A program made the translations under genes and the position numbers. A stretch of DNA of 51,363 bases, counting the filler, from Sphacelaria rigidula (Eukaryota): the NCBI GenBank assembly GCA_964200075.2. It is 4 parts of 4 records of this genome, joined end to end, with 100 filler letters (N's around TTAATTAATTAA, not from the genome) between each part and the next. Parts side by side here need not be neighbours in the genome. Positions count along the whole stretch, not along the records: positions 12,868 to 25,633 come from CAXNAA020003433.1; positions 25,734 to 38,498 come from CAXNAA020003434.1; 2 more parts are not named here. The stretch is one strand, 5' to 3'. Shown in pieces: positions 9,501 to 51,008 of the stretch. Positions within the stretch are counted from its first letter, which is position 1. Each line of letters opens with the position of its first letter. The notes under the pieces are model-generated. The model did not search any database and was not told where the DNA came from. It worked only from the letters and a program-made list of their open reading frames with translations.

Positions 9501-10339
9501 CAGCGCCTGATGTTTCGGTTCAGGCTGCATGAGGCGCCTCATATTGGCGACATTGGCTAGAACGAACCCAAGCGTGGGAATTCCCAGCTGCTCGTTGTGC
9601 TCGGCTTTTCCCACTTCGATTTACGTTAAGATTTTGCCTCCGAAAATCATACACTTTTTTTTGGGGGGGGGGGCTATCGTAGACAGTATCGTTTGCCTCC
9701 GCGGAAGTGCTTGTAATCGTGGAAATCGTTGTACCCTTCCAACAGGGGGATATTCGTCCAATCAAAGATCACGGTGATGAAATTAAATGCGCGTCTTTGG
9801 AGTGGAAATAAGAAGAACACGTGTGCGTGTGTTTAGAGAGAAGTGTTCCAGACTGTCCATCGGATTTCTCCCTCTCTCTCTCTGTCTCTTCTCGCCGTTG
9901 TGATCGATGACCACCGGGGGGGGGGCGTGGGCGCAGAGAGAGATCGTTCTGTATAGGGGATGTGTGTAAGGACCAAAGCACCCGGATACGGGGCGATGGC
10001 AGTGTTCCGAATTCTCACCCGTTGCGTTTCGTTCGTCAGTTTAAATATGCCCATTTACGGGCACACTCGTCAGAAGTGGTGAAATGACCCAGTGTCATGT
10101 GTCTGACCATCAGTAGTAAGAAGACACAAATCAATGTCGAACGGGGTGGCGTACCACGAGGATATTTAGAGAGGGTGTTCACATTCCTCTTATCTCATGA
10201 TTGATTTTGCCGTGAAGTGATGAGCACACCCACCGCCTCCGCTGTTCGGGATTCGCCGTCATCCGCCTCGCCGTATCCCGTACATATCATATGTACACAC
10301 TACACCGCGGGTCTCGCTCATTTCTTCTACATGCGTTAG

Positions 10340-10391
<52 letters not shown>

Positions 10392-11419
10392 CCCGCCCTG
10401 CGCNNNNNNNNNNCCCCCCCCTGCTCCCACCCATAATCATTTTTCGCCCCCCCCCCCCGGCGCTCTCCTTTTTTTCTTCCCTTCCGGGCCCCCCCCCCCC
10501 CCCCCCCCCCCCCCACCTCGGCTTCGTGAACGAAGGTGGCATGAAATCGTCTGATGCATTAGACAGTAACGAAAAAACGATGGCTATACTAGGAGATGAA
10601 TGGTGGCCACAGACGACGAAACAGGATGGGGATAAGATATATAAAACGTTTTTGTGTGATGTATGGAAGAAACGTAATGAGCACCCAAGTGTTGAAGGTG
10701 CCTCTAGTAGGAGTAGGAACAGTGCTCCGTCTCCGTCTCGAAAGGGATGCGTGTTCAATGGCCAAACGACTAAGGCAAGCAATAAATGAGTACGACGCCC
10801 CCCCCGACCCCCCCCCCCCCCCCCCCCCCCCCCCAGAGAGCCCTGCGGTGGGGGGGATGTGCAATCTTTTCCCCCCCCCCCACGTACCTTGTGACGACCC
10901 CCTCGGAATGAGTCCGTAGTATGGAGGAATGGATCTATCTCTCCACCCGTACATGGCTAACTTGGCACTTCGTAACCTGGCATTGGATCATTAATTTTAC
11001 TACAGGCGAACAACCGCTGCCAATTAATGCCTTAAAACTATCTCGAAATGGGCACCCATCTATTTTTGTCACTCTTCAGGTACTGGGGTACTACACAGTA
11101 CACTCGAGCGTTGGACTGAGATTCTTTCGAAATGTGCCTACCCCACTACCCCAACTCGCTGAGTCGCTTGTACCTTTGTTGATCCTTCTCCACAAAGCAC
11201 TTGCCGCGAACACAAGCCATAATCCATAATCCCAACCTCTTCGAGTCCTCGAGGTCCTTCCTGACCGTTCTTGCCCATTGCTCCGTGCTACTCCCTGCAC
11301 TATCTACCCTTGAATACCCGTTCCTTCCTATGCAGAACCCCAACTTCTTTGAGGACCCCCACCCGTCGAACATGGCGCCAATGACCGGCCTCGCCGTGGA
11401 GATCTGGTCTGTTGATGGG
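528..11419 (+). CDS. CNX: Calnexin (ER lectin chaperone), partial: 9 internal exons at 528-731, 1446-1511, 1828-1929, 2670-2744, 4236-4421, 5425-5499, 7821-7937, 9199-9345 and 11336-11419; signal peptide and C-terminal TM/cytosolic exons not found in the contig
   Basis: The AG/GT-bounded exons splice in frame. They give [57 protein letters not shown]-domain repeats ([61 protein letters not shown]), the calnexin-type P-tip disulfide [13 protein letters not shown], and GLAVEIWS. Confidence 0.95.
4538..5134. mobile_element. Tc1/mariner-like MITE in calnexin intron
   Basis: Inverted ends TACGAGCTGG(C/G)CCAGC at 4538 and 5134; the outer TA may be the TSD; no transposase ORF. Confidence 0.6.
9444..9683. 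mobile_element. MITE with TCTACGATAG-C(n) / G(n)-CTATCGTAGA inverted ends
   Basis: Perfect inverted terminal match including the C and G runs; 240 bp; non-coding; no clear TSD. Confidence 0.55.
10525..10797 (+). mobile_element. 5'-truncated non-LTR retrotransposon (LINE) 3' end embedded in poly-C tracts
   Basis: Encodes [20 protein letters not shown]...[16 protein letters not shown], homologous to the longer ORF2 fragment at 39430-40165; C tracts on both sides. Confidence 0.75.
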
Positions 11420-11741
11420 GTAAGTCGCCTTTGGCGCCGTTCTTGTTCTCGGGACGGTCCGCGACTTCCATGAGCTTTCTTGTGATGCGAGGGGTTTGCA
11501 ACTTGCGACATGTATAGCAGTCGTGTGCTCCGGCCGGGCGGCAAGTGGAACGTCCTTGTTGTCGCTGGTGTTATGTGGTTGTGTGTATTTTCATTGGTAT
11601 TTTTGCAGGGTCTTATCGCACAACTCGTGAAGCTCGTTCGATGATTCCACGGTCAGGACGAATTATCACGGGTTCGAATCACCAATTCCAAAAGCACTTG
11701 TACCCTTTCCTGTACACGGGGGTCGGATTACCTACAAAAGT

Positions 11742-12006
11742 TCCACGGTTAGGACAAATCATCACGACTCTGAATCACCAAATTCACGATTTCTTCGGCC
11801 TCTGATTGCCCAAAAGGGAGAAAAAAAGGTGACCGCTGGTCCAAGGGGTATCCACGCAACTTTTGCGCCAATCCACGTGTCTGGACTGCGTGTACCTGGG
11901 TTGCAACGCTGAAAACAAAGCCTAGGGATTGATTCGTCTGAGTCGAATCAATGGCACTAACACCAGGTAATTTCCAAACGAATCATTGATTTGTCCGAAC
12001 CTTGGA
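11742..12006. mobile_element. MITE (GG-TCGGAC-AAT-type TIR family); a partial duplicate of its left end lies at ~11646-11690
   Basis: Inverted ends TCCACGGTTAGGACAAATC / GATTTGTCCGAACCTTGGA; the internal sequence matches 47637-47893 in reverse orientation. Confidence 0.65.
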
Positions 12007-12767
12007 TGATCCGATGATTCTCTCACGTTGCACGTGGGTGGTATCAATCGTCATGTAAACACACTTTGCTCTCCTCTGGCGCCGGAAGTCTGATTTGTGT
12101 GAACGATCGGGTACTCGAGCTTCGGGCAGGCTTTTTTTGTGTGTTTATGTGTGGGGGTAGGGTCCTGTGTATCTCGTCCATCATGCAAAGCGTGCGTGTT
12201 TTGCACCCTGCTGCTCTGGCGTGGTGTTTGAATCGTTTTTCGCATGGTGTCTGCGTCATTCTCCAAGTGATGAAAGTCATGTGTCTAATGTGTTGCGTTA
12301 ACGATTTGTTGGATTTTCACTTTTTCCGTTGCGGTTTATCTTTGTTGTGTTGTTGGTTTTTTGCCTGTGGTCATGCTCCAGATGTCAATGCAAACGAGAA
12401 GACATGTGGAATTTTTGTCGCTCGATATTTTGTCGTTTTAGAAAAACTAGTGTGTGTGTGATTGCAGGCGGTTATTTGTATCGTTTGTCTGTCGCCGTAA
12501 TTTGGTCGTTGATTCATCTTTTGCTTCGCGTTTTGTTCGCCTATTGCATGACATATTTTTGCCCAGTTGCTCGTGTTTCAGAGAAGGTCACGTCCAGAAA
12601 AGTAACGATGAAATAGCTAAACACTCTGTTGTCAGTTATCGCGCTTGGTTTCTCTTTCCCCTGTCTTTGTTTTTGTTTGCTTTGGACTCCCCCCCCCCCC
12701 CTCCCCCGCGCTCTCCCACTTACCAAACCCTCCACTATCTCACCACCACCCCCCTCCCCCCCCCCCC

Positions 12768-12867: not shown

Positions 12868-13119
12868 AACAGTTCGCAAGTTGGGTTGCCCACTTGAGCC
12901 TCAATTCAGAGTTAAACCTCAATTCTCACAATTTGCTGTTATTACTAGGTATCTGAATCACTCGAACATGATCATCTCTGCTATATACAAATCAACACTC
13001 GTATCTGACCAACTCTGAACAGACCTGCAGTCTCAGGTCTTAGAATACCAGAAATGCAATAGCCGGACTCATCAACGGGTCTGAAGTGGCATAACAGGCT
13101 AATATGCGTCCTCATGACA
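12868..13119 (-). repeat. 3' LTR (short form) of the Gypsy element; purine-rich PPT-like GGGTGGGGTAG immediately upstream (13120-13130)
   Basis: Starts TGTCATGAGG on minus. ~12955-13119 matches 24378-24542 closely; 12868-12947 matches 23268-23350 patchily. Confidence 0.8.
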
Positions 13120-13721
13120 CTACCCCACCCAGACGAACCTTTATTATAGCTGCGAGGATTTATCTTCGAGGCAGCGAAACTAAGGTTTTTCTTTACTCGC
13201 AAGGTCATGAGCGGCTAATAAAGCATGCCTAAGAAAACATTCCCGTACCCAACACTCCCGTACCCACTCCCACACCTCAAAAAGGAAGCATATACTGCTT
13301 CGAGGAGCAGAAAAACTGCTTCGAAACGCGGAAGCACAAACTCCTTCTGCGTGCTAGCGATCAACGAAGAAACACAAATTGCTTCGGCGTCCTAGCAAAA
13401 CGAAGGGGGAACACAGGGAGGTACGACAGGGAGCAAAGCTTCAACCTGGGGGAATCCAAGAGAAAAAACGGCAAGATCAGTATGCGACCAACGCATGTTG
13501 GTCGCAAGCAAAATCTGAAAATTGGTGACCCAAAGAGATCGAGCGCCAGCCGGAAGGGGATAGTTCCCGTAGCCGTAGATGGTGGGTGGCTTCAGTAATT
13601 CTTCGATCGTCGTCCGATGTAGGTGGTCCTGTTGTGGATGTCGTAGAGTACGGTCCTACTGAAGAAGGGAAGGCAAACAGTACTACAGGAGGGGGAGAAA
13701 GTTGCAGCGAAGGAGCGTGGT

Positions 13722-14400
13722 TCAAAGCGGTGCGTGGACGTCGTGGGTGTGGTCAATGTTGCGCTGAAGACCGCGGCGAAGTCCTTTGGACTTGAGGCGC
13801 TGGAGGCACCAGGATCCGCGTGGTGCAGATAGGCTGGTGGTGTATAGTGCTGGCCGGAGTTTGAGCTGTATGGGTCCAGGGTCATCGATGAAGCGCACGA
13901 TGTATGTGTCGGCAGAAACCAGGTTAGCCGAGTGGATCTGACCACGCAACCAGAGGTTGTCGCTGCCTTTGAACCAAAGGTAGCTGCCCTTGGGCAGTAT
14001 TCGCTGGTTTGCGAAGAACTTCGTCTTACAAGTCTTGGTGGGTACAAGTTCGTAACGATCGGCGACGAAGCGTAGTCCCTGATCGCGGTGAAGTTCGCGG
14101 GCTGCTGCGCCACGACGCATGTTGCGATATTTCTTGTTGTGAGCAAGATGCTGAGGTTGAGATTGCGTCCAGTACAGGAGGATTGCACAGCGGTGCAATT
14201 GAACGTCGGATTCGCGTTCCCAAGACGCTCTCCGGAGACCGTACCAGTGGGTCTTATACATGGCAGCAATGTTGCCACCTCGATCACGGGTTATCTGGTG
14301 GCCGGAGATGGTGCACACGGTCAATCGGAGGGGCTGTTCCGTCACGCCGTCGGTGGTAACCTGGTAGGGTGTTTCCGTCAAGAACTTCGCGCGAGTACCG
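13722..14400 (-). pseudogene. Pol C-terminus: chromodomain followed by Tudor/Royal-family-like domain
   Basis: ISGHQITRDRGGNIAAMYKTHWYGLRRASWERESDV..ILLYW fits the chromodomain pattern; GSYLWFKGSDNLWLRGQI..YIVRFIDD fits a Tudor/Agenet-like barrel. Confidence 0.7.
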
Positions 14401-14609
14401 AGAGTGCAGAAATCGACAAAATCAGAGGTAGTGGGCGCTAACCCGCCCAAGACGGCGTCATACGGTAGAGGGTGCGGCCCTCCCATATGCACACCATAAC
14501 AGTTTCTGGGCCCTGGGGGTCGAGGGCGTAAACGGGCGTTGAAAAACGTCTAATCGGGTAAATTCCAAGTTCATCAGGTTCCCTTGAACGGCAAGCCGGG
14601 CAGAAATCT

Positions 14610-15120
14610 GCGGCCGTAGGCGGCAGAGGTAATCGAAAAAGAAGATCAGCGTTCCCATTGGTTTTGCCTGGACGGTGCTCAATGGTACACTGGTATGCTG
14701 CTAGAAACTCCAACCATCGTTGTACACGCGGTTTGTGTTCGCCAACGTTGGCGAGTTGTTTGAGTGCTCCATGATCTGTATAAATCTTCAAGGGCACGGG
14801 AAACAGATATTGTCGAAGGCGCTCAATGGCTCAGGTGATTACTCCGCCTTCCAGTTCTAGCGAACTCCAATTTGCCTCGTTCGGTAGGGTGGCGCGGGTG
14901 ATATAGAGGATGGGTCGTACAGAGCCATCAACCTGAGGTTGATTCAAAACTGCTCCAAATCCGTTTATGCTGGCGTCAGTGTGGAGTCGGGGGAAGCGAG
15001 AGCCATCTTGTACTGCCTCCCAATCAGGAAAGCAGAGTACCCGCTTTTCGGTAAGCGTCTTTAGCAATTCGCGGGTGATATCCTCCATATCGGTTGTGAA
15101 GGTAAACACGGCTCCTTTCT
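14610..15120 (-). pseudogene. Gypsy RNase H (disrupted)
   Basis: LHTDASINGFGAVLNQ..RPILYITRATLPNEANWSSLELE, KIYTDHGALKQL, RVQRWLEFL..IEHRPGKTNGNADLL; interrupted by a stop. Confidence 0.9.
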
Positions 15121-15139
15121 TAGTATCTCAATAAGGGGG

Positions 15140-15900
15140 CGAATCCGTTCGAAAAAGTTCGGCAACATTTTACGGTAGTAAGATGGTCCGCCCAACAATA
15201 AGCGAAGTTAAGAAATGTTAGTTGACATCAGCAAGTCAGTCGTCGCCTTGACGTTGTTTGTAACCGGATGCAGTCCTGCTGGCGAAATGGAAAGCCCCAA
15301 GAAATCAAAGTATGTCGCACCAAGGCGAGCTTTAGATGGAGACAGTTTCAAATCGTGTGTGCGTAGGCCAGAGATGAGTTCTCGTAGAGTGCGGATAGGT
15401 ACAATAGGTAAGGCATCGAAAGCGTTAGCGTCAACTAGGTACATGATGATGTGCTCGAGGCCCTCCGTGACGCGCTGCATTATTAAGCGTTGAAAGCATT
15501 CCGTGGCAGTGGCGGCGCCTTGTAGCATTCGAAGCCACTCGTACAGTCCGGACGAGGTACAAAAGGCCGTTAGTGGGACTGTGTCAGGATGTATAGCATT
15601 CTGAAAAAATCCAGAAGTGAGGTCGAAGGTGCTAAACATTTTTCCTTCGCCTAAGGAGTCGAAGACTTCATCAATGCGGGGAATCGGAAGTTTACCGACC
15701 ACAGTGACGCGGTTCAACCGTTGATAATTCACGGTTATGCGTATGTTTCCATCCTTCTGGGGGACGACAACAAGTGGCGAGGCCCAAGGAGAGGAGGAAT
15801 GATTTATCAATCCCGCTCCCAAATACACGTCCAAGATGGCGTTAACTTTCTTGGTAAGGATTGGGTTGTTCGGTATGATCGAGAAGGTTAGAGGGTAACC
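15140..15900 (-). pseudogene. Gypsy reverse transcriptase (disrupted; YLDD reads YLVD)
   Basis: SSSPWASPLVVVPQKDGNIRITVNYQRLN, PIPRIDEVFDSL, FSTFDLTSGFFQ, TAFCTSSGLYEWLRMLQG, FLGLSISPAGLHP. Confidence 0.93.
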
Positions 15901-16599
15901 TCAAAGGGCAGCGTTTTGCAATGCTGAAGATCCGTCTTGGATCGGAAGAATCGGTCTTCGTATACTGTAGCAGGACACCACTAAGTTCTCGGATGACTGT
16001 CGATTCTCAACCGGGCCCATGAAGGTCAACATTGATGTCACGCATGTGTGGCGGCAGTTGGTGCCACATTTGCAAGAAAATATTCCGAGAATCTGGTGAT
16101 GAACGTTGAAGCACTCCAGCAGGAGGATCGAAATTTGACTGGGCAGGATCCACGTTGTGAACCTGGGGTGGAGTCGCAGAGGCGAGGTCGAAATAAGGTT
16201 CATCGACACAATGGACTGATTCCGTTGGAGATGTGGCGTTTGGCGCGGCAGGCCCTGTTACGCATGTCTCGAGTGGGATGTGCATCAGGGGTGCAGCGGC
16301 GATTCCGAAAATATCGCCGAGTTCCAAGTTAGCATGACCCGTAAGAGGGAGTAGTTGTTGTCCTGCCGAGATCAAATGTTCTGTGTCGGCTGGTGCGCCA
16401 ATACGGAGTAACATTCCGGCAAGATAATGACCCATAAGTGCTGGCATGCCATTTCGGCGAACTGGTGCAACTTCCAGAAGTTGAGGATCGTCGGAGAGTG
16501 TAATGCCAACGTTACCGTTGTATCGTACGTGGTAAGCAGCTCTGGTTGCTTGAGTATTCTTCTGGTAGGCCAGGGCGCCGTGGAGTGTACCAAAGTGTT

Positions 16600-17000
16600 C
16601 AAGGTTGAATTCTGCACGAGGCGTGGAATGTGGCGATGGTGGTGGAAGCGTGCGGTGGATACATTTATTCAACCACATATAGCTATATCTGCCCAATAAC
16701 ATGGCGTGGTGCATTGTGCTGTCGGGGACAATGTATGCCCAGACTGTCAGGCTGGCAGAACGAGTGGTGTTGTGAAAGAGTTGGACACTGAGACGTACGG
16801 ATTTTTGTGTCGTCAGGGGTGCGGCAGAATCACCGAAACCGCCCCATACTCGAGGTTGGGTGGTGGTTTCGCAAGCTGAAGTAGCAGCGCCAGTCTGTTT
16901 CATGTGTTTCCATGCTGATTCTCGAATGAATGTTTGCGGGCTGCCGTTGTCCAACAAGGATACGCATTTCGTAGGCGTGGTAGCGTTTGGACCAGAATGG
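16600..17000 (-). pseudogene. Retropepsin aspartic protease
   Basis: CVSLLDNGSPQTFI (degenerate LDTGS motif) and downstream AMLLGRY, directly upstream of RT. Confidence 0.75.
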
Positions 17001-18458
17001 ATCGCAACGCGTGTAGTGAAAGTGGCCGGATCCACAGACACTGTGCCGCCGACAAGATCCGGACCGTGTTCCAGCAAGGTAAATTGGTCAGGATCAGCGG
17101 GGCTGACAGCAAAAACACACGGCGGGTGATCCGCCGGTGGGTCGGATTTCTCACCAGAGAAGGGGGTGAACGGTATATTATTTCCAGGTGTAGCACGGTC
17201 AGAGTGACTATTCGCGATTTCGTAAATGATCGTCTTTGGTTGACAAGGATCACCGTCCAAGGGGGATCCAGATTGTGCGGGTCTAGAGTCGTCGATTGGA
17301 GAAGTAATGTCGCAAGAAATATTTGATTTTGTTTCTTCCGTGATACTTGATAGAGTTGCGAACTCAAAGTCGTCGCATTTTGGAGAGATTGAGGTGGAGG
17401 ATTTCCGCTCGAAAGAGGTGTACGTGATGATGCGCGCGCGTCCTTGGAGGCATGCTTACGGGGCTTTCTCTTTCGCCGTCACAATGGTCGGGGAACTTCC
17501 AAAACATTTTGAGATGAAACCACAACTGCATCCAGTCGGGTGGATGGGGTCAGCATCGGGGCATGACGGAGCGAAACTTGTGGGCTGCTTTCCGTAGGCA
17601 AGCTTGGCTGGGAGGTCATAGCCGAAGGTATTTTGGGGCGATTGTTATTAGAACCGGCCACAGGTAGTTCCGTGCGTATTGAAAATCGCGGGGAAGGAGC
17701 TCGATCCAACTGAGTGAGAACTACATGATCCGATGTGGTCAAGTTCACATCAGCAACACTTGAGTCAGCTGAAAAAGGCTTGCTACTACCTGTGCGTGCG
17801 GTCGCTGAGGGAAGCCTCTGCCTCAGGGACTGGCGGTTAATCCTCCCACATCTCAGACCCATACTCGGCACTGAAGGACCAAGTTCAGGGCCGGGTGTAG
17901 GTCTGAGTCGCGGGGTGACACAACTGTTACGCGGTGTGTGGAGGGGTGAAGACGGGGGTCGATATGAACGGCCATCAGTTGCCCTCCTGCATAGTGCCGG
18001 GGGAGCCGGGCGAACAGTCTTAGTCGCGGGCCCTGCGGGATGTGTTGAAAATTGTGTGAAGGTTGGAGACGGGGATCGATTTGAACGGCCGTCTGTTGCA
18101 CTTGTGGATAATGCCGGGGGAGTCGGGTGAGCAATGTTAGTCACGAACTCCGCGGGCTGTGTTGAATAAATCTTCGCTAGTGTGTCGGCGGCGCGGAAGA
18201 CCTCAGAACGCCGGCGTCGGCACGTCATGGGTCTATGCGATCCGTAGTGAAGGTACCAGGGTTTTTGGTGTTGGGGTTCGAGTTGTGTGTCGGCTCCGTC
18301 CGTAGGTGTCTATCAGCGGATCGTTTGTTGTCGCGAGAATTGTGATCGCTCTGGCGAGGGCTTGCATTATTGTTGTTTCATCGGCGACCGCGATTAGAGC
18401 TTTCGAATGCCGTTGTTCAAGTCAAATAAACATCATCCCAAGTTTCTTCGGAGAACGG

Positions 18459-20142
18459 CTAACCATTAAAACTCGCACTGGATGCATCTCTGTTACTCTG
18501 AACATGCATAACTGAACCGGCGACCGAGTCGGGGGTCCATGAAGCGCGAGATGAACTCGAATTCCTACCGCGAGACCCTTGGGCATTAGCGGAGGACACA
18601 ACCATAGGTTGTGAACATAGAGGCGTATAAGATTTGCCACGTATGGAGTGCGTTACATTACCCTCTTGATGTACAACAGCAGAGCACATAGCATCAACGG
18701 AGGCGTAAGGCACCTTGTGATGCGCCGAGACACGCGGAAACAACGACGGCATCAGAGCCGGATACTGTTGAGCAACGCTATTGCGAACGTAAGTCTGACA
18801 CATTGCGTCCCTTGGTCCGTTTTGGCGTCCGACACCCCCCGTAGTACCGGAGGCTAAAAGCTCATATTCGCGAAGATAATCCGCGAAGGGGACATCCGAT
18901 GCGATAGCAAAATAATTCAGCCTCTGGATAGCACTTAATTGGTCACTTTTGTCAAAAAAATGCATCAGACGCATTTCCAGATCAGAGAGCAATCCCGGGC
19001 CTGTCTTCCCCTTGGCACGATCCGGATCCATTTCGGCGAGGAAGCCGTCGAGAATCTGTGTTAAAGAAGCAGCAATGTTGGGAAAGCGGCGGCTGATGGA
19101 TCGATGCAATGCTTTATGCAAAGGGGTCTGCCAGTCGTCTACTCAATTGGGATTTTCAAAGCGTTGGACAACAGTTGCATCCGCCAAGTAAAGGGTATTG
19201 CAAACTGTACGGCAAATGGATGTAATGAGGGCAGAAGTAAACTGTCCCGAATCTTCGTTATCCGCAGCAGGCATGTTCTTGATATACCAAAGCTTTTTCA
19301 CATCCATCTGAATATACTGTCTCTGTATTGCAGGTACTCGGGCAGACTCGACTTTGTCGAAATCTGCTGTTTTTACTAGCTTCGGAACGTTCTTTGTCGG
19401 CCGCAGCGATCGCTAAAGCGCGGGCTGCAGTAGAAGACAATGAACAGTCTGGTGTGTCCGTATCAGATAAACCCAAAATACGACACGAAACATCGACCAA
19501 CTTAGGTATCACTTGCCTGGGTGTCGCCGAACCCGAGGGGGGCAAGTCTGTGCTAGACCGGGTCCAGCCTGTCGCGGAAGATCCGGAAGAATTTCCTCCG
19601 GTTTCCTTCCGGGTCAGGCTGCGGTTATTGCGGGCCGGGCGGTTCGGTCCGGAACCGCCCGAGGAGGATCCTCCGCCGCCATCGCGGCGGTGTGTTCTTC
19701 CTGCATCGTTGTCGTCGTCATCCCGCCGGTGGTTCTTCTTATTTCCTCTGCAGTTGGCACTCGTGGGAGTCCAACCATCGTTATCCTGGTCATCGTGGGC
19801 GATGGTGGCGTCGGGATCAGAGTTGTAAGCGGCACGTAGCGCCGCAAAAAGATTGGTGGCAGTTTCCACGTGATGAGGTTGATCAAGGCCGGCGCCAATG
19901 GTCACATGCACGACGAGTTGGCCCAGGGTGAGGGACGGCAAGCCCTCCTCAGGGAAGAATCCGCCCTGGTCCACGTGTAGACGTTGGGACACCAAATTCC
20001 AAGCTTGGCGGGAACAATGGAGGTGATTGGGGCGGTGGAACGGGCCGGCATAGTCGGCCGCGGAACGAGTAAGCCACATTCGTTCGTGGTGCGTGAGTTG
20101 CAGGCCTGGTGTCGGGCCGGCATTGGCAGCCGAGATAGCCAC
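18459..20142 (-). pseudogene. Gag-like region (fragmented ORFs 19258-20142 and 18459-19121)
   Basis: Position upstream of PR; helical capsid-like segment (FDKSDQLSAIQRLNYF..PFADYLREYELL). The assignment is positional. Confidence 0.5.
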
Positions 20143-21204
20143 TCGAAGCGGAGTCTTGGGGCCATCTTGGGGACGGTGGTGGCCGCAGCATAAGACGGTG
20201 GTCGGACTTACGTGGGATTTTGTAAGTCGACTGGCCGGTCTTGGACTGGGCCGTGTGGGCTAAACGCGGGTTAGGAGGGCGACCACTGAGCAGGTTGCCG
20301 GCGGACGGCGGAGAGGCCTGATGGTTGGTCAGCGGGCCACCGACATAGCCGCGTCGTGAGCGGTCCGTCAGACATGGTCTCCCAGGTCCCGCACCCGTCT
20401 CTGGGCCGCCATGGCAGCAGGGCAGCCTTCCTGAAGGGCGCGTTGGGCAGCCATGTTCGTCGTTTGAGCGTGTGAGGCCTGCCGCTGAAGATCCCGTTGC
20501 TTGTCAGCATGCTCCTCCGCGAGGCGGCGTGCAGCGGCGGCGTCAACTTCGCGTTGTTGATCGAGGATATCTTTGGCAAGCCCTGGCGCCCCCGAGGCGT
20601 AATCCTTGATCAACGCCATTTGTTCCGCGCGGGGACGGTTCCTGAACAACCTCAGGGGGAGGCAAGTTGGACAGTGCTCATCACCGAGGAGAGGGAGATC
20701 TTCCACAGACGGAGTCACGGGCATGGCGATATCCGTGACGGAATCAGTTGTGGGCCCACTATCAGCGTCGGTGTCGACGGCAGACGGGGCGGCAACTGTG
20801 GTGGGAGCCGTGACGGTAGTAGCTGTGACCGCAGGCGCGGCGGCCGTGGTAGCAGCGGTGGCAGAGGCAGTGGTGGCGGCAGCAGCGGCGGCGGGTACTC
20901 CTTTGTTTTCCATGGTGGTTTTGGCGAGTCTTCGCTTGATATCTGCGAGTTGTTGTTGCAGAGAGTGAATGATGACAGCGTAAGAGCAGGACGGGGTTCG
21001 CGGTCAGTGCTGGGTCTTCGGTTGTGCGATGAATTACGACTGGACCCCTCTTTTGAGGATTCAAGAGCCGGTGACATTATCGAAAATATATTCTGAATGT
21101 CGGCAACATGTATGGTATTATCATTGCGTAAATGACGGCGGCGTAACCGAGGTGAAGCAGGAGGGGTGCCCGCGGTTGCGTAATCGGCATTCTCAGAACG
21201 CAAT

Positions 21205-21410
21205 TGGGCGCACGATGAATTCGATCTGTTCCGCGAACTATCCTCGTGAGTACGGTCGCGGCCGGCATTCGCCGGGCGCATGGGAGCGCGCGATGAATTA
21301 GAGCTGTGCCGTGAACTACTTTCGTATGTGCGGCCATGAGCGGCATTCTTCGGGCGTGTGAGAACGCGCGATGAATTGAAGCTGTGCCGGGAGTTGTCCT
21401 TGGGGCTGCC
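21205..21410 (-). repeat. ~78-bp (26-codon) degenerate tandem repeat x3; further in-frame duplications at 21961-22170 (~126 bp) and 17951-18130 (~117 bp)
   Basis: GATGAATT recurs at ~78-bp spacing; peptide units SSRHSFNSSR / SSRHSSNSSR / SSRNRSNSSC. Confidence 0.7.
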
Positions 21411-23255
21411 AGCACGGGTGACGTGGTCGTGACCAACTGTCGATGTGTGGCGCCGTCCAGAAGCGCGAGCAAGACTTTGGTGCGAAGTGGAGGAGGGGCT
21501 GGACTCGTGTTTGTTGAAACTCTCATGAGAGACGAACGGAAAACGCGGTGTCGCCCATCGGGACGCCAAACGTACGGGTTTGGGCGCGGTAGGTGCAGAG
21601 TCATCATTGAATTGCACCGAAGCAGAGGCCGATTGGTCTTGGAACGCGGCCCGGCACAAAGCCGTAAATGCCTCGATTAGAGCTGGGACTGACGTGTGCG
21701 CTGACGCCGAAGAAGGGCGAAGCAGATTCTACAGGGCAGAATGCATGGCCACGACTGCTGGTCCGACACTGGACTGCGAAGCAGAGCGCACTGGACTGCC
21801 GAGAGTCGTGCGATTGGGATCCATAACGGAAGCAACCCGCATGACAAAATCTCTTGCTCCAGAAGCGATACGCTTCGTCGGGACTGAGTCGTCTCGAGAT
21901 TTGTCAACCGTCGTCCGACGGGGTGCCACGGTTGAAGCAATCGTTACACGGCCATGCTGGACACGTCTGTCCAGGGCCAACGACTCAGCTGAGGGCACAT
22001 TCCTGTCTTCGGATTTCATATCGGGATCCGGAAGAACAGGCCGCAGCGAGGGGGGTGCCACGGAACCCACGGTTATGGTTTCACTGACATGTCTGTCAGG
22101 AGCCAATGACTCAGTCGGTGGCACAGTCCTGTTCTCTGAGTCCGAATCGGTACTGGAGAGAACAGGTCGCGGCTTCATAGTCTCTTCTTCAAGTCCCGAA
22201 GGATGAGCAGCGCTCGAGAGTTGGTGTTCAAATCCCGAAGATCTAGCAGAGCTCGCGTACGTGCTTCGAGTAGTCGAAGGTGACGCGTTACTGATATCAA
22301 AAGATTTCGAACCGCCAGTAGGTTGGCTCCGTGTCCGGCAAAGCGGTTGGTTTCCCAATTGAGGGGAAGTGTCGGCGTTATTTCTGTGCGACATGAACCT
22401 AATCGTACGCAACTTGTGTGCCTAAAACAGTGGGAGCAGTGTGTTGTCGGGCTTCAATCAAAGGAGCGCGACGCCAAGAAATGCTAGGTGCAACGGCCGA
22501 AGCTTGTATCCAGAAATACCGGATAATGAAGCCTAATAGCGCCTGAAGGGACCTTCGTTGGGAACCTGATGAACTCGAGTATTGTTAGCCAAGCTAATTG
22601 CTGTACGCAATAAAAATGTCGGAGGTCTGGCCTAATACAACTATCTAAGTTGTGGTGGTGGTAATAGCTAGCAACGGAAGCTCGCGATCGCGCACAGAAC
22701 AGGCGCACGGCGTCGAAAAATGCACAAACCCAATTGACTGTAGCGGCGTTGGTACCTGAAAGTAGTGCAGCCTACACGTTTTTACGGTGTCGGCGTCAGG
22801 GGCAGACCACAATTGTATTATCCTGGTTCAAGCGGAGAAACGACTGGCGGTACTCAAGAATAAAAATAATTAAATGAGCACCGAAGGGTCGTGCGGCATG
22901 GGGCAGCACACAAGCTTCCACAAAAGCTTGAAATGGAGACCGTAGGATCGGGCGGCGTAGTGCAGCACGTAGGCTTGTCACACAACGGAGTGGTGGCAAC
23001 GTACGTATATAAAACAAAGTTGGAGTATTAATAGTGCGCAGCAGGGGCAGCGCTGAGGGCGTGTCCCGAAAAAGAGTTACACACCAAAGGGGCACTGGTT
23101 TTGAGTGCCGGTGCTCCAAGTGAGCAAGTAACGCAGGTCTGGAATTTATCAATGCGGCGTGTCAATTAGAGCGTAGTTTTGGAAATCGCCATAATAACTG
23201 AGTTGTGGGGGAGAACAACTAGCGACTGGTAGATTGGAATGTTACAGGCGCGTAT

Positions 23256-24542
23256 TGTCACGAACGGAACAGTCTCGGAACAAATAATTATTTTTGGCCG
23301 ACAGAGGCTCAGAGATAAAACCTCACCGCAGGGTAGGCTGTGTATTACTAATTAACGGCGCCGCTGTACAGATGTGCGAAGCACACTAGAAGAGAACAGC
23401 AACAACAAACTAGCTACGAGTGACGTATATCGCGACGCAATGGGCCGTGCACAATCGATACTAAAATGTGAAAGCGGCAGGTTGCTGGCTTGGCAAAGGG
23501 CTCAGGTCAGGAATAGCAGTTGACTGTGAGAAACGATGCACCCTGTGCAGTGTTTCCTGTAACAAACCTGTGGTAGGACACTTGTCCTGTCAGAAAAAAG
23601 GGGGCTGCAAGGCCAAGTACCGGAGCCAGCGATGGCTGGGCGTGTGACCGTGCTGTACTGGACGACCAAGGAAGGTTGCGCTGTGCAGGTAGCACGCACG
23701 TGAAGTGGAAAGTGCAGGCGCGTATTTCCCAAAATACATAGTAACACAGCAGAGCGGGGCTGGCGTGCGATGCGCGTTGACCCAGCGTGGCACAAGGCGT
23801 CCAGTCAAACGCTGCAGCAAGCAGCAAGCAGCAAGAGTCGTGAGTCACGAGTACTATGACGGGGTAACACACAGGGGAAGAGCTTTGCAGTAACTAAGAA
23901 CTGACTATCTAGCAAGCCGAAAGCAGCGAGATAGGTTTGACTACCTTTATCAAAGATCACAAGGAGAAAATTTTCAACAATAAGCCACGCGCGCGCAGCT
24001 CGAGAAGCAGGGGTTCAATCGGTGTTGAGAAGAGGAACGCAATTGCAAAAGAGGAGACTCCTTTGTCAAACGCCAAATGTCATGGGGCTACGGTGATGGC
24101 AAGCACAGGCTCACTAGGCAAGGCAAGGGGCCAGTCCGCAAACTGAGCGGCCAGGCTAATAAACAGACACCGCCTAACACAGAGGTGTCCGACAGATACC
24201 AATATTTCACGCGCAGGCAGTATCTCCTCTTTTTTTCTTGGTCTCAACCTCCCAGTATTCAATCAATCAATCCAATCTCATGCTCAGTCAATCTGTCCCA
24301 CCGGTGTTAGGCTTCATTGCTGGGAGAGGGGCAGTAGATGGTAGTGATGGTAGGGTGGCTCGGCTTGTGCAAAGACACACTCGAGCCATCACCATCTCTG
24401 CCGTATACAAATCAACACTCGTATCTGACCAACTCTGAACAGACCTGCAGTCTCAGGTCATAGAATACCAGCAATGCAGTAGCCGGACTCATCAACGGGT
24501 CTGAGGCGGCAAGACAACAGGCTAATATGCGTCCTCATGACA
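23256..24542 (-). repeat. 5' LTR (long form, ~1287 bp)
   Basis: Bounded by TGTCACGA...TCATGACA; both ends show similarity to the 3' LTR at 12868-13119. Confidence 0.7.
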
Positions 24543-25633
24543 TATGTGTTTTTGGTTTGCGGGGGCGGTCAATTTCTCCGGTTCACCTTTGGTTGTGATA
24601 GGTTGTGTTGAGCCTTCGTGCGTACTCCCACCACCCATGTTCCTCTTCGGCTGAAAACGAAACAAAAAAAGTATTTCGTGGAATCGGCGTTGATTTTGCA
24701 TGAAAATCGAACTGGCATCCTGTTCAAATGACATGCAGAAGACACGACAAAATTTTCCGCCGCTCTCCATCAACCCTTTGGAGGCGAGAAAAGTAGGTCA
24801 CCTGTTGAAGCGGCGTCAATTTCACTCAATAAAAGTATCCATGATTCAGATTGACTACCGTGTGTAGTCCATGAGCTGCTAAACGGCTTCTCCTCCAAAC
24901 TATGACATTTGACATTACGCAATCCACACAGCTATTTCCGGTGATCATGTACCTTGGCTGTCGATCCACTGATCGTGGCGGCGAAGCCGCAAACACTCTT
25001 ATATAAGAATCAAATTGGGTATGTATGTGCTGTAGCATGGTGCCAATCTCTCCAGCGATTGGGAATCGCCGAACGAGAACACACAGAGGACACGGGGGCG
25101 AGGAGCTTTCTCTCCACCGTTGGTCCCCCGGTGGTACATCGACACGCGTGTACACCGCATTTATTCGGCGCACCTAGCCACACCTGCTTAACTGCTTAAC
25201 TGCGACAGAAGCTTGTTTTGCGAAGATGCTTTCCCTTAGGATAGCTGCTTGTACAAAACCTGGATTTCAGTTTTTTCACTTGAACCTTATTCGAGTGTTC
25301 AATCCAATTTTAGAGGGTCCTCTGATCTGAAGTTGTCAGCTAGTAGTGACTGGCCCAGGGCAAACCCGTTCTTCATATGCTATGGTATACTACCACAGAA
25401 CGCCAGACCTATTCTGTACAAGTCGACCGAAGCACGGAAGACAAAGCATGAAGCTGTGTACCGCTGCTTCACGCGTCATCGTTGACACAAACAATTTCCG
25501 TCGATGCCTTCGAAGCGCCCTCCATCTCAATTGATATACCCCATATCCCTCTCACACGCGGCTATATGGCTACCCCCGAAATTCCTCCAGGTGTGTGATG
25601 TGAAAGTAGTGAAAGCACCTTGGGGAGGTTGTG

Positions 25634-25733
25634 NNNNNNNNNNNNNNNNNNNNNNNNNNNNNNNNNNNNNNNNNNNNTTAATTAATTAANNNNNNNNNNN
25701 NNNNNNNNNNNNNNNNNNNNNNNNNNNNNNNNN
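25634..25733. other. Artificial contig linker
   Basis: N44-TTAATTAATTAA-N44. Confidence 0.97.
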
Positions 25734-25797
25734 ACTCATTTGTTGCTTGCCTTAGTCGTTTGACCATTGACCACGCATCCCTTTCGAGACGGAGCAC
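25734..25797 (-). mobile_element. LINE 3'-end fragment (same family as 10525-10797)
   Basis: Encodes [20 protein letters not shown]; sits at the contig edge. Confidence 0.75.
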
Positions 25798-26043
25798 CAG
25801 AGGGGTGGGATCGAGGGGGACCAAGGCGGGGAGGGCATGGAGGACGGCGATTCCAGCGACGGAGACAGCGACGGAAAGTTGGAATTTCATCGAGTCTCCC
25901 CCTACAAATTTGTTGCTGTTGCTGTGGTTGCTGCTGTTGATGATGTTGCTTGCTGTTGCTGTTGCCTTTGAGTGCATTGATATTTGTATTGGTGTCAATC
26001 AGTTTAATAAAGCTATGTGGTTTGCAAATGCCGCTCGTTGCAG

Positions 26044-26498
26044 ATATCCCTAGCGGCCAGATCGACGAGCTAAGCCTTGTGGACGACGACGACAGCATGG
26101 ACTCGGAGGATGAGATACATGGCATGGAGATTCCGGACGGCTTTCGCATTCAAGTGTCTCCACCCGCAGCTCTTGGCAGTTCCATACTCCAGCGTGGAGT
26201 CCTTGTTAGGCTGGGCATGGGTTGGTTTGGTGAGCTCATCACTCGGCAGTCTCAGGAGCGTACTCGCCATGTTTACGACTACCGTGTACATTTCGAAGTA
26301 GACGAGAGTACGCGTAGCATGAAGCTGCCGTTGGAAATGTACAGTGGAGATTCGGATGTGGTGGTAGGCTCTTGGGTTTTGCTTGAGAGGAGCACGGTAG
26401 AGCAGGTGGATGGGGTGAGAGCTGCAGCCACGTTGGGCGTTAGCAGAGCGGGAAGAGTACGCACTCCCAACGTGACCCTTGTGAACCAGAAAGCGTGA
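26044..26498 (+). CDS. Probable terminal exon encoding an acidic linker plus a Tudor-like GSW domain, probably the C-terminus of a transposon protein
   Basis: Acceptor TTGCAG at 26038-26043; open to TGA at 26498; LVRLGMGWFGELI..YDYRVHF..MKLPLEMY..GSWVLL; four AAATAAG motifs at ~26702-26800 resemble subterminal repeats. Confidence 0.5.
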
Positions 26499-27189
26499 GG
26501 GTTGCATGATGCCGTGAAGTTTTCCACACTTGTACTTTCCAGCGATCGTGATGCTGCGACGCGTTCGAATGTCTGTTGTGCTCACAAGCGTTTTTCAATC
26601 ATCAGGCGGAGAGTGCGTATTTAATACTCATGTCAAGTACTCTGAGTCCTGTAGTTCACCACGAACGGACGTTGCCATACCCCCCTGGAGCACTGGGTGT
26701 TGAAATAAGGACACGAACCCGCGTTTTCAGGGACGAGTGCCTGGCCAAAATAAGAACTAGGCAAATAAGAACAGGTGCTCGGGTTGAGGCAAAAAATAAG
26801 CCTTGAGCCTCACGCAAACTAAGCGGTTCTTAAGTGCGGGCGCCTACTGTATGGCGACCACTTCTCGTCTGACCCCCTTCTTACCTACATATACAAGAGG
26901 AAATCATCGCCAGCCTCAGAGTTTCTTCGGCATCAGGACGACAGTCTCCCCCCGTAGGTCTCTGACTACTCTAGCAATACGACTTCCTTACAGTTGCGTT
27001 TTGATCATATTTTGCGATCTTCATCGCAGTTGGCCACGCGTCTCCCCCCAATACATGGCCGTACTATGGCGCCTACAGCCGCAACCCCTCTATTCCCCCA
27101 AGGCAAAAATATTTCTTCTGCGTCTTTGGAGCTTCGTTTTTCGCCCAACACCCCCACATCGAGTAGCGAAACTCATTTTTCCCATACAC

Positions 27190-27840
27190 CCGTAAAGTCT
27201 CGTTCCTCAACGAGCGAAAATGATTTGCCCTCTCCCAGTAGCGGAGTTGATTCGCGTTCTACGGTAGAACCTGATCTCCACCGACAACTGCCCGGCCTGT
27301 CTTCGATGCGTCGGATTCCTTGCCCTCTACTGTAGAGTCTTATCTCTCTACTACTGCAGAGGTTTCTCCCGTTTCCGCAGAGTCTGATTCCTCGCACGGT
27401 ACGGTAGAGTCTTCACGGACAAATGCCCGGCCTCTTTCAACGAATCTGATTCGTCGTCCTCTACTGCAGAGTCGATTTCCCTACTACCGTAGAGTCTCGT
27501 TCCCCCACGAGTGAGATTGATTACCCTCCTACTGTGGAGTCTGATTTCCCTACCACCGTAGAGTCTCGTTCCCCTATGAGTAAAATTGATTACCCCTCTA
27601 CTGTAGAGTCTGATCTTCCTACTACTGTAGAGTTTTCCCCCGTTGCCGCTGAATCTGATTCCTCATAGTAGTGGAGTCCTGTCCAAACCTTATATAATAT
27701 TAGAGTCGGAAGCGGGCTGTTTTCTATGAGTCTGATTCTTCACCCTACACTGTAGAGTTTGATCTTCCTACTACTGTAGAGTTTTCCTCCGTTACCGCTG
27801 AATCTGATTCCCCGTGTTCTGCTGTAGAATCTTCACCGGC
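27190..27840 (+). repeat. Degenerate minisatellite built on CTACTGTAGAGTCTGAT (STVESD-like units)
   Basis: More than 10 recurrences of TAC(T/C)GTAGAGT with higher-order duplications. Confidence 0.75.
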
Positions 27841-28000
27841 TCATGATGCGTCTACGGCTACTATAGCGTCTCGTTCCCGTACAAAGGAAGTTGGTTTTTG
27901 TGTGGAGCCCCCGAGTGAGGAAAGAGATATTTCATACCATTCCCCCAGTGTTGGTTCACGCCATATCTTCGACGAAGGCGTTGTGTCTCGTCCCCTCGAT

Positions 28001-28666
28001 TGATACAAACAGAACAGTGTTGGCCATAGTTGTTGTTGACATTGTGTATCTCTACTGTAAAAGCCGATGTACTAGAGCGAGGCAACAAGAGCATTTCGGT
28101 CATGCGAGTTACGATGTCTCGCTAGCTCATGCGATTACGACTCACTCTTCCTAAATGAATACATATTCCACCATTCCATTTGGCACACGCTTCGTTTTTA
28201 CTACTGTGTCGACCTTCTTGCATCCGCTCACTGCTTGAATCAAACATCTTACAGTCTCACCGTTATTCCTGAAACAATCGTAAGCTCACAGCACGTCGGA
28301 AAGTCCAACGCAGAACGATACGCGACGAGCGTCAGGATATCCTTGATCACGACTTCAGGCCGATTCGATTTCTCTTTTTCTCTTGGTGGTGTTGACTTGG
28401 CACTTCAGAGAAGTCGCACTTCAAAAGAAGAAGTGAAACACCAGGGTGACAGCTGGGTGAATCGATCCTTGGAAAGAACCGAATCCAATCAGATGTAAAG
28501 AGGCATGTTTATGTATTCCGTCTCTGGACGGATTACATCACCTTCACCCCTGATTGCGGTACTAGCCAGTTCCCGCAATCAGCCCTCCGGGCGTAGTGTC
28601 ATTTTGAAACCGACGGCCCATCATCGTACTACCCTTATCCACCGCGCCACGTCGCGATCCGTAACA
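28001..28666 (-). repeat. 3' LTR (666 bp, TGTTAC...GTATCA)
   Basis: 28001-28577 equals 35641-36217 apart from mismatches at 28092 and 28173; it begins right after the [17 protein letters not shown] (28667-28680). Confidence 0.85.
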
Positions 28667-29279
28667 CCCCCCCTCAGTCCTAGGATTGAAAAACCCTGGG
28701 ACTGAACGTGGTTCACGCGATATATCGCGGCGTTACCATGTCCCTCTTCCCGAGTACTCGGCGTCTTGGTGTAGCCGTCGATCTTGATAACCGTTCTGCT
28801 GGGTTAGACCGCGTAGGGCATTGCAACACCACGCAGCAACGATTCTATCCCGCCCGGGGGGGGTCCTTGATCTTGTTGACCGCTCTGCTGTGTTAGACCA
28901 CGTAGGGAATTCAAACACCGTACAGAAACGATCCAATCCAGTACGGAGAAGTCCTTGATCTTGTTGATCGCTGTCTTCCGTTGGATGCAGCAGCCACTGC
29001 AGCGTAGCATCGTCCTCCCACGCCACTCCAAGGCTTTTCCACACTTCATTCGATGCTGCCAGTTCGCTCCGACCAGACAACCTCACTGTCGAGTCGTCAT
29101 CAAGCGCGCTTGGCTTGACAGCACGGAAGAGGTTCGAAGTTGCCGAATCTCCTTGGCTGGTGAGGTGGTTGGTGGCAACAGCTCCGAGTTTTGGGGGATT
29201 GTTAGACAAGAACCGGACTCACGGCGCCTCCGGCGAAGGTCGAAATCCTGATCGACCCTCAAAAGACACTGTACTCTTG

Positions 29280-29600
29280 TTCCTTTTAAAGAATCTTGCC
29301 CCCAGAATAAACCGTACGGCAATCCATCGATCACCCTAATCCATACTTTCCTTATTCTGTTCTTTGGGTGGAACCGAATCGGGATTACCGCTGACCCCAG
29401 AATCTTCATCGGTGGCGTCCGGCTGTCACTAAGGTTTGCTGCCCTTAGAAATCCTGCTCCCTGTTGCTGCAGCTTGCCTGTCATGTTACCCCAAGTTACC
29501 AACGACTTCCACAACTACTTTGATGCATAGCTTCCCCCCCTCGCCACGGTGTCCAGTAATATCGTTAATGGTAAACCGTGGCTACTTTTCCTGCGGTGCC
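29280..29600 (-). pseudogene. Retropepsin protease, frameshifted
   Basis: GLPLTILLDT(G)GEGGSY with an indel, then MKILGSAVIPIRF..IRVIDGLPYGL. Confidence 0.65.
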
Positions 29601-29706
29601 AAGCTCTAGCTTGCACCCACAGTTGCTGTGCATCACTACCCTTCACTATTGCTCAACTACCCACGTCTACGCTGTCCCCCGGGGACTGCGGCGCCAGGAC
29701 GCACCT

Positions 29707-35622: not shown

Positions 35623-35640
35623 TCCCGGTTGGAAGCACCA
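35623..35640 (-). promoter_or_regulatory. Primer binding site TGGTGCTTCCAACCGGGA (tRNA isotype not determined)
   Basis: TGG-initiated 18-mer directly after the 5' LTR end ...GTATCA; its complement reads like a tRNA 3' end, ...GGAAGCA-CCA. Confidence 0.8.
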
Positions 35641-36217: not shown

Positions 36218-36359
36218 TAACGTTGTTCACCGGAAGGGTGGGTAATGAAGCTAGTACCGTCGCCAACCCACCGGCATCCCCGCAGCCGCTGATTCACACG
36301 GTGGAACCCGAGCCGCCACCAACACGCCCGTCGTCAACACGTGATGTAGTGCACCCAAA

Positions 36360-38598: not shown

Positions 38599-38643
38599 GA
38601 GGTCAATGGTCTGATGACTATGGCAAGCATGATCATGAGTACA
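38599..38643 (+). mobile_element. LINE 3'-end fragment, related subfamily, followed by a C run
   Basis: GAGGTCAATGG..GACTA..GCA..ATCATGAGTA-C(n); matches 43940-43990. Confidence 0.55.
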
Positions 38644-50955: not shown

Positions 50956-51008
50956 TGATGATGATGATGATGATGATGATGATGCTCATGATGATGATGC
51001 TCATGATG
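50956..51008. repeat. (GAT)n microsatellite
   Basis: Direct reading. Confidence 0.9.

Follow-up and report, generated by a model that had tools for sequence, protein, structure and literature searches.

Reader domains carried by integrases provide the best understood route by which transposons choose safe landing sites and, to our knowledge, almost all of the known fusions of this kind are chromodomains on retrotransposons. Brown algae bear unusual chromatin marks on their transposons. Here we describe a DNA stretch of 51,363 nucleotides from Sphacelaria rigidula (assembly GCA_964200075.2; the whole stretch is referred to as the window), in which the tail of a Ty3/Gypsy Pol protein and that of a second, apparently spliced gene, in all likelihood a pogo/Tigger-like transposase, very probably belong to one domain family with a Tudor-like fold.

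Chromodomains on integrases are thought to steer integration to a chromatin state (PMC11541908, PMC12477816). In its accessible portion, a 2025 transposon survey reports chromodomains on three Ectocarpus Gypsy lineages, which it places outside the chromovirus clade, as well as a NADAR domain on one chromodomain Gypsy lineage (example Gypsy-12_Ec32) and an N-terminal EsV-1-7 domain on the Tc1/mariner element TcMar-2_Ec32 (PMC12477816). For Gypsy-10_Ec32, it describes a Tudor domain at the C-terminus; according to its authors, no transposon had been reported with such a domain before, and a homologue exists in Tribonema minus (PMC12477816). Neither a C-terminal reader on a DNA transposon nor a domain spanning transposon classes is mentioned in that portion of the survey. 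Reader-transposon fusions across eukaryotes have also been surveyed (bioRxiv 10.1101/2021.11.30.470311).

Relationship and predicted fold of the two tails

The window consists of four pieces of approximately 12.8 kb (12.77 kb) each, i.e., 1-12767, 12868-25633, 25734-38498 and 38599-51363, which are joined by paired runs of 44 N; an extra gap of 10 N lies inside the window at 10404-10413. The Gypsy tail lies in the second piece and the other tail in the third. A preliminary description of this DNA had quoted a peptide from each, and both were located in place by direct translation. The elements that it had regarded as shared, i.e., W-x4-I, Y-x-V-x-F and KL-x4-Y-x8-GSW-x-L, could all be read directly in both translations. 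It was likewise right that the tails sit on different pieces, with N runs between 12868-25633 and 25734-38498, and that their DNA is not alike, the best blastn-short match having E=1.2 and the matches spanning only 7-12 nt. No additional copy of either tail was found when both were compared with the window by tblastn. The two open frames and the modules within them are as follows, A and B denoting the families of the first and second tail, respectively.

13722-14549, minus strand: Pol-tail open frame P0001, 275 amino acids (aa), with ...WLRGQIHSANLVSADTYIVRFIDDPGPIQLKLRPALYTTSLSAPRGSWCLQ... near its end and its stop codon at 13722-13724 (translation)
13800-14072, minus strand: family-A Tudor-like module, from the leading strand RFVADRYELV... 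through a five-stranded barrel to GSWCLQ (translation, AlphaFold2, 64 relatives)
about 13800-13997, minus strand: family-A barrel proper
25944-26498, plus strand: second-tail open frame P0002, 184 aa, including ...WFGELITRQSQERTRHVYDYRVHFEVDESTRSMKLPLEMYSGDSDVVVGSWVLLE... (translation)
26130-26390, plus strand: family-B Tudor-like module, from the leading strand IPDGFRIQ through a five-stranded barrel to GSWVLLER (translation, AlphaFold2, 262 relatives)
about 26196-26390, plus strand: family-B barrel proper

Relatives of the second tail were collected in a full HMMER scan of 1.84 billion cluster representatives, which yielded 262 proteins at E≤1e-3, 114 of them at E≤1e-10. For family A, a word-indexed search with the first tail aligned to its long relative P0003 yielded 76 proteins at E≤0.01 among 1346 candidates. 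Domain alignments excised from these sets comprised 64 rows for family A and 46 rows for family B. When the two were compared with hhalign, they matched over 43 columns with a score of 29.4 (P=2.1e-5, probability 76.7%). In a control in which the columns of the B alignment were shuffled, none of 150 comparisons reached this score (maximum 19.35, mean 10.4), and the reversed-profile control scored 12.3. A profile comparison of the uncut alignments returned the same register and extended it by the W..G.I strand (score 32.9, 57 columns, P=6.3e-4, probability 28%). The match between the tail families is thus significant, as the preliminary description had supposed, and it was reproduced in both directions with hidden Markov models (HMMs). 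At a per-sequence E<1e-3, the A-HMM matched 31 of the 46 B domains, with a lowest E of 1.9e-7 as against 5e-4 among 920 shuffled sequences; at the same threshold, the B-HMM matched 40 of the 64 A domains, with a lowest E of 2.8e-6 as against 2.7e-3 among 1280 shuffled sequences. The closest cross-family pair, P0164 and P0007, shared 22 of 53 residues (42%, E=2.2e-7). Alignment of the mixed A and B set with MAFFT gave a single register in which the G and W of GSW were invariant. With permissive settings, hhalign also aligned the leading-strand motifs, i.e., L..GY.LV in family A with IP.GF.LQ in family B. When the extended modules were aligned globally with hhalign, the result was poor (probability 7%) owing to bad alignment around strand 1, and information can be drawn from the local alignment only.

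Common descent has to be weighed against convergence or chance, by which two unrelated small barrels would share their spacing as a fold requirement only. Three points count in favor of the latter: the single pair from the window is only marginally alike and, on its own, not significant (11/34 identities by BLASTP, E=0.063), the hhalign probabilities are moderate (77%, 74% and 28%, all below 80%), and small barrels recur widely. The profile score unmatched in all 150 column shuffles, the reciprocal HMM matches beyond their shuffled controls and the 42% identity of P0164 and P0007 over 53 residues argue the other way, as do identical loop residues outside the strands in both families (A-x2-GSW-x-L and L-x3-Y). 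Moreover, neither family is this close to any Pfam Royal-family model, in what was a profile-to-sequence rather than a profile-to-profile comparison. We therefore regard convergence as very unlikely, and judge from the sequence comparisons that the two tails are very probably homologous members of one domain family.

AlphaFold2 (AF2) models were built with the family alignments for 13740-14369 (minus strand; model A) and 26028-26495 (model B) of the window. Model A had a mean predicted local distance difference test score (pLDDT) of 88.4 and a predicted template modelling score (pTM) of 0.76, with strands at residues 106-108, 130-134, 140-148, 155-160, 166-170 and 187-192. For model B, the mean pLDDT was 75.5, with values of 86-91 over residues 31-120, and strands were found at residues 39-41, 57-62, 65-74, 85-89, 94-98 and 116-121. 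The order of elements was the same in both: a short strand leads, a short helix or turn comes next, and four barrel strands are then followed by a helix of one turn at L-x3-Y and by the final strand at GSW-x-L. The predicted module thus measures approximately 90 residues and comprises a leading beta strand followed by a five-stranded SH3-like barrel.

For both models, the weak rows returned by Foldseek were mostly histone-reading Tudor, Agenet, PWWP or Spindlin domains; those for PHF19, PHF1, PHF20 and TDRD3 had probabilities of 0.96-1.00 and a root-mean-square deviation (rmsd) of 1.7-2.7 Å over 44-54 columns. The weak Tudor, Spindlin and Agenet matches of model A covered its residues 103-207. 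In VIA, a search independent of Foldseek, the top barrel match of both models was the TraI SH3-like domain (Z 5.9 for model B and 6.3 for model A). The RDM15 Tudor domain followed with Z 5.8 for either model (2.1 Å over 56 for model B, 1.9 Å over 56 for model A), then Spindlin-4 (Z 5.4 for model B, 6.1 for model A), and PHF19, Agenet, LBR and Esa1 Tudor domains were also among the neighbors of both. In Pfam, family A gave sub-threshold matches to Tudor, Agenet and SH3 models; six of 50 members matched Agenet (PF05641), the lowest E being 0.026, and one of these matches, for example, scored 15.2 bits where the cut-off is 27.

Several of these results weigh against a Tudor assignment. No Foldseek row against the PDB reached E≤0.001 for either model, and all barrel matches in the structural searches were weak (Z below 8), a range that may reflect a mere common arrangement. 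Generic SH3-like barrels, i.e., TraI, PsaE and KOW, scored about as well as Tudor domains. The Pfam TUDOR model (PF00567) reached 13.8-14.4 bits against a cut-off of 23, and did so only in the window copy (one of 50 family-A members), and none of 49 family-B members matched the Pfam Tudor, Agenet or SH3 models. The domain is outside every Pfam gathering cut-off in both families. Nevertheless, the two models share their strand order and largely the same weak neighbors, in agreement with the earlier description of both tails as Tudor-like. On the strength of these models, we consider it very likely that both fold as a Tudor-like small barrel; membership of a named Tudor family is not supported.

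Other searches added little. A PDB-sequence profile search with family A returned chromodomains only, and weakly (MPP8, E=0.02). With family B, the sole matches were antibody heavy-chain variable regions (E 0.1-0.5), which we take as noise. An Atlas search with the family-B module gave no usable match, and among predicted structures of viruses Foldseek returned no row at E≤0.001 and nothing that was informative.

Transposon contexts of the two families

A search of long proteins with a mixed A and B profile, in which 8000 candidates were scored, identified 117 proteins at E≤0.01, of which 113 belonged to family A, four to family B and none was intermediate. Precomputed Pfam annotation of the 117 showed rve in 31, RVT_1 in nine, NADAR in two, DDE_1 in one, a probable chimera (TIMP+WSC) in one and nothing in 83. 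None of the rve or RVT_1 carriers was among the four family-B proteins.

In P0003 (779 aa), the order is Integrase_H2C2, rve, a chromodomain-like stretch and the tail, with approximately 245 residues separating the rve core (220-320) from residue 566, where the tail match starts. P0279, from Ectocarpus sp. CCAP 1310/34, carries NADAR, reverse transcriptase, RNase H and integrase, and then the tail; NADAR is N-terminal in some members of family A, and one member is from Sphacelaria rigidula itself. Pfam Chromo was matched in 11 of 50 family-A members (best E=5e-6). In agreement with this assignment, VIA aligned residues 12-73 of model A with Chp1, HP1 and Polycomb chromodomains (Z 5.9-6.6, rmsd 1.5-1.8 Å), including Chp1 at Z 6.6 and 1.6 Å over 53 residues and HP1 at Z 6.3 and 1.5 Å over 51. 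Family A is a brown-algal Ty3/Gypsy Pol in which the tail follows the integrase and a chromodomain. In the window, the following remains accompany it.

14151-14336, minus strand: chromodomain directly upstream of the Tudor-like module (translation, Pfam Chromo in the family, VIA)
14438-15127, minus strand: RNase H remains (Pfam RT_RNaseH and RT_RNaseH_2, E=2e-8 to 2e-10), with an in-frame stop at 14831-14833
15208-15900, minus strand: reverse transcriptase remains (Pfam RVT_1, E=4.4e-11)

By tblastn, the Pol homology of this degraded copy extends to approximately 17080. P0277 matches it over residues 24-873 and then jumps to 1595-1834, so that residues 874-1594, integrase included, are missing from the window, an internal deletion of approximately 720 codons. 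Residues 566-769 of P0003 match 14369-13740 at 49% identity, the rest of that protein being unmatched. Homology of the tail to full-length Pol begins at approximately 14429 (P0277) or 14369 (P0003), with the deletion junction upstream. The attribution of the first tail to a Gypsy Pol in the preliminary description thus holds for its position, with the correction that the integrase has been deleted from the window copy and the tail therefore stands directly after RNase H. Relatives with the same tail do possess an integrase, i.e., P0003, P0277, P0279 and the 31 of 117 long proteins with rve. The window copy is a dead, non-autonomous deletion relic whose chromodomain-Tudor tail is still open.

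The Pol remains are flanked by a direct repeat (12959-13119 and 24378-24542), whose copies lie 11.4 kb apart and share 91% identity over 165 columns; it was the only one found when looking for long terminal repeats (LTRs). It may be an LTR remnant or may be unrelated; if it is an LTR, approximately 7 kb upstream of Pol (17080-24378), with long open frames lacking a Pfam match, is left unexplained. Two family-A gene models are unusual: P0204 (373 aa) has the tail joined to TIMP and WSC domains, and P0290 (310 aa) has it joined to half a NADAR domain. Neither is likely to be a real architecture, and chimeric or collapsed gene models are the probable explanation.

Family B has different partners. 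DDE_1 was found above the Pfam cut-off of 22 bits in P0245 (33.4 bits) and P0265 (37.7 bits), and below threshold in P0110 and P0005, and HTH_Tnp_Tc5 reached 17.6, 16.3 and 10.3 bits against a cut-off of 22.2. When residues 100-580 of P0005 were compared with the Atlas, all ten feature rows and all ten structure rows listed were clusters with DDE_1 (in 10%-100% of members); the structure rows included HTH_Tnp_Tc5 clusters, and the neighbors were of the pogo/Tigger type. Seven family-B proteins (P0005, P0007, P0010, P0021, P0110, P0245 and P0265), out of 17 in which the tail is preceded by 90 residues or more, had a recognizable transposase part. Full-length members (P0005, P0047, P0265 and P0267) also have an N-terminal C2H2 zinc finger, below threshold (E 0.001-0.005), which explains the public name "C2H2 zinc finger protein" of the Ectocarpus siliculosus protein. 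Named members come from Ectocarpus siliculosus, Ectocarpus sp. CCAP 1310/34 and Ascophyllum nodosum. As expected of transposons, the family is multi-copy, with 262 clusters when grouped at 50% identity and one cluster of 45 members at 90%. The preliminary description had proposed a DNA transposon and had named hAT as one candidate; the first part is upheld by DDE_1 in P0245 and P0265 and by the Atlas pogo/Tigger clusters, and the element is pogo-like rather than hAT. In P0005, part of the tail is duplicated internally, giving two matched stretches. A PFU domain indicated in this protein (22.4 bits against a cut-off of 26.2, with no single stretch passing) was judged to be spurious, its score being inflated because the duplicated tail segment adds to it.

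When the long family-B proteins were compared with the window, only the tail was matched and no transposase was found, because the piece starts at 25734, inside the gene. The parts present are listed below.

25815-25893, plus strand: end of the preceding exon, acidic linker ...GEGMEDGDSSDGDSDGKLEFHR, in another frame than the terminal exon (P0265 match)
25894-26043, plus strand: inferred intron (splice sites inferred)
26044-26498, plus strand: probable terminal exon of a pogo-like transposase, i.e., acidic linker, Tudor-like module and basic tail ...SRAGRVRTPNVTLVNQKA, with the stop at 26496-26498

Residues 782-800 of P0265, an Ectocarpus gene model, align with 25815-25871 in frame 2, and the adjoining residues 801-819 align with 26043-26099 in frame 1; stop codons separate the two matches. 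The second of these matches begins at 26043, at an acceptor-like ...gttgcag just before 26044, and the GKLDF stretch of the preceding exon also occurs in P0007. These collinear matches in two frames, together with the acceptor-like site, support a terminal exon of a spliced gene with an intron upstream, as had been proposed; the exons further upstream fall outside the piece, which holds only part of the preceding one. Contigs of four sequencing runs contained no joint across 25894-26043. One short contig from a possibly-RNA run starts to match at 26046, after 46 letters that do not fit, and is too weak to use.

The beginning of the third piece is unusual in itself. Its first 65 or so bases (25734-25798) correspond to an extremely abundant short unit, with a summed contig depth of approximately 1.8e7 (run X1) as opposed to approximately 370 for the neighboring gene. 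Many contigs have joints going back 62-65 there and G-rich loose ends on both sides, those of possibly-RNA runs included. The pattern resembles that of a short repeat or tandem unit of very high copy number, located within the transposase gene or next to it.

That the second peptide might not mark an independent element, but rather a captured Gypsy fragment, a chimeric gene model or a domesticated single-copy host gene, was also considered. The window holds only the last exon, with the transposase out of view, and some tail-bearing gene models are clearly chimeric, as with P0204 and its TIMP and WSC domains. Furthermore, ten of the 17 family-B proteins with long upstream regions have no recognizable transposase motif, being short or oddly modelled, which also detracts from a transposase context. 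Set against this, the order of transposase, linker and tail is repeated in seven family-B proteins, each of the 117 long proteins is assigned clearly to A or to B by its score, the upstream exon fragment of the window is collinear with the transposase linker of P0265, and copy number is high. Nor is the second open frame a piece of the Gypsy family, as its relatives carry DDE_1 above the cut-off. We consider such an origin highly improbable. That the tails end two types of transposon, i.e., a Ty3/Gypsy Pol and a pogo/Tigger-like DDE_1 transposase, is a conclusion in which we have high confidence.

Aromatic positions and a putative role in chromatin targeting

Across the 64 rows of family A, W132 is conserved in 62, W140 in 61, Y156 in 59, F160 in 60 and D162 in 63. 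W132, W140, F160 and D162 are placed on strand 1, on strand 2 and at the end of strand 3, at positions that we take to be the methyl-lysine cage sites of the 53BP1 and PHF1 Tudor domains. The family-A pattern W-x-x-x-DG-x-WW-x-G-x-I likewise presumably resembles the Tudor hallmark. Family B departs from this in ways that speak against a reader function. It conserves only W66, Y/F85 and D92 of these positions, its strand 1 lacks a conserved aromatic residue, and its strand-3 position is occupied by L more commonly than by F. This makes a canonical aromatic cage doubtful in family B, whose ligand may accordingly be a different one. As judged from sequence, the case for a chromatin reader is reasonable for family A and weaker for family B.

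The conserved endings of the two families also differ. In family B, a variable linker 3' of the barrel is followed by a conserved basic motif, SR-S/A-GRVR-x-PNV-x-L/N-x-x-Q, at 26442-26495 (plus strand) of the window, which is also present in P0004, P0009, P0016, P0245 and P0265. It could be a nuclear-localization signal or a second binding motif. Family A ends in G-x-L-R-N-I/V-D.

We propose that a domain of approximately 90 residues, with a single origin, ends both the Gypsy Pol and the pogo/Tigger-like transposase, and that it would tether the integrase or transposase to chromatin via a modified histone tail or a chromatin protein. Such tethering would bias the landing sites of new copies, as chromodomains do in chromoviruses. 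In family A, the barrel may act in tandem with the chromodomain; the confident model of chromodomain, helices and barrel (pTM 0.76) suggests a tandem chromodomain-Tudor reader. For the overall explanation, i.e., one Tudor-like domain in two transposon contexts serving chromatin tethering, we estimate a probability of about 0.6. Targeting as a chromatin reader in particular is a candidate role for the module, one to which we give slightly less than even odds.

The module may instead be common by descent without being a histone reader, serving DNA binding, multimerization of integrase or transposase, or docking to a non-histone host protein. SH3-like C-terminal domains of retroviral integrases and the translocation-signal domain of TraI offer precedents, and the SH3-like domain of TraI was the top VIA barrel match of both models. 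The incomplete set of conserved aromatic cage positions in family B and the conserved basic tail after its barrel would fit such a role, and family A already has a chromodomain for reading histones. The Foldseek rows of both models, mostly histone-reading Tudor, Agenet, PWWP and Spindlin domains, do not favor it, and family A keeps W, W, F and D at the presumed methyl-lysine cage positions. In addition, Gypsy integrases have a C-terminal domain of their own upstream of the chromodomain, for which the approximately 245 residues in P0003 leave room. On balance, a non-histone role appears somewhat unlikely, and chromatin tethering is the reading that we retain.

The domain would have either moved between transposons or been captured twice from a common source. 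A more specific proposal, that the module passed between the integrase of a retrotransposon and a DNA transposase within brown algae, or was acquired by both from a single source, so as to give both the same chromatin-mark preference, with a tandem reader of combined marks in the Gypsy lineage, is more speculative still, and we regard it as improbable as it stands. A candidate mark for a common landing preference is the H4K20me3/H3K79me2 state, which the discussion section of one paper ties to Ectocarpus transposons.

The presence of one module on a retrotransposon and on a cut-and-paste transposon of the same lineage suggests that transposons of different classes exchange targeting modules. 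A natural experiment is thereby provided as well, in which the same module is attached to two different integration chemistries, and the identity of its ligand could show how brown-algal transposon marks are read. In practical terms, the alignments provide a seed for a new domain model and for better annotation of brown-algal genomes, in which these tails at present go under the label "unnamed protein product" or "C2H2 zinc finger protein".

Comparison with known systems

A full-text literature search, judged from titles and abstract openings, found no description of a Tudor-bearing pogo-like transposase, and no report was found of a pogo-like fusion or of a domain common to both transposon classes. 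The word Tudor was absent from a 2025 brown-algal centromere preprint.

From the available descriptions, chromoviruses, Ectocarpus ECR-1 and Gypsy-12_Ec32 resemble family A in having a Ty3/Gypsy integrase with a Royal-family reader fused to its C-terminus; the family-A member P0279 also has, at its N-terminus, the NADAR domain known from the Gypsy-12_Ec32 lineage. With NADAR in P0279 and a chromodomain, family A looks like a Gypsy-12-type lineage. The accessible portion of the survey does not mention a second Tudor-like barrel on the chromodomain lineages, i.e., ECR-1 and Gypsy-12_Ec32, whereas one is present in family A (PMC12477816). As far as a comparison by description goes, Gypsy-10_Ec32 is like family A in that a Tudor domain ends a brown-algal Gypsy Pol, but the survey keeps its Tudor lineage apart from the chromodomain lineages (PMC12477816), while in family A the two domains occur together. 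If family A is of the Gypsy-12 type, the extra barrel would be an unreported addition; it could equally be the published Tudor domain. The suggestion of an unnamed family in the preliminary description accordingly stands in so far as the domain falls short of every Pfam gathering cut-off, and is qualified by the C-terminal Tudor domain published for Gypsy-10_Ec32, which by its description could be the same domain or another (PMC12477816).

The Tudor, Agenet and Spindlin readers (PHF1/PHF19, RDM15, TDRD3, 53BP1, AGDP3 and Spindlin) have a five-stranded barrel of the same size as that of both models. The modules of families A and B differ from them by the extra leading strand and by the L-x3-Y ... 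A-x2-GSW-x-L ending; their sequence similarity to these readers is under every Pfam cut-off, and family B lacks part of the aromatic set. Like pogo/Tigger transposases of the Tc1/mariner superfamily, family-B proteins of full length carry DDE_1 above the cut-off, together with a putative CENP-B-type helix-turn-helix that scores below threshold, but they differ by the C-terminal Tudor-like module and the N-terminal C2H2 finger. Reader domains fused to transposon enzymes are thus known; what appears to be new is a module, missed by Pfam, on two classes of transposon.

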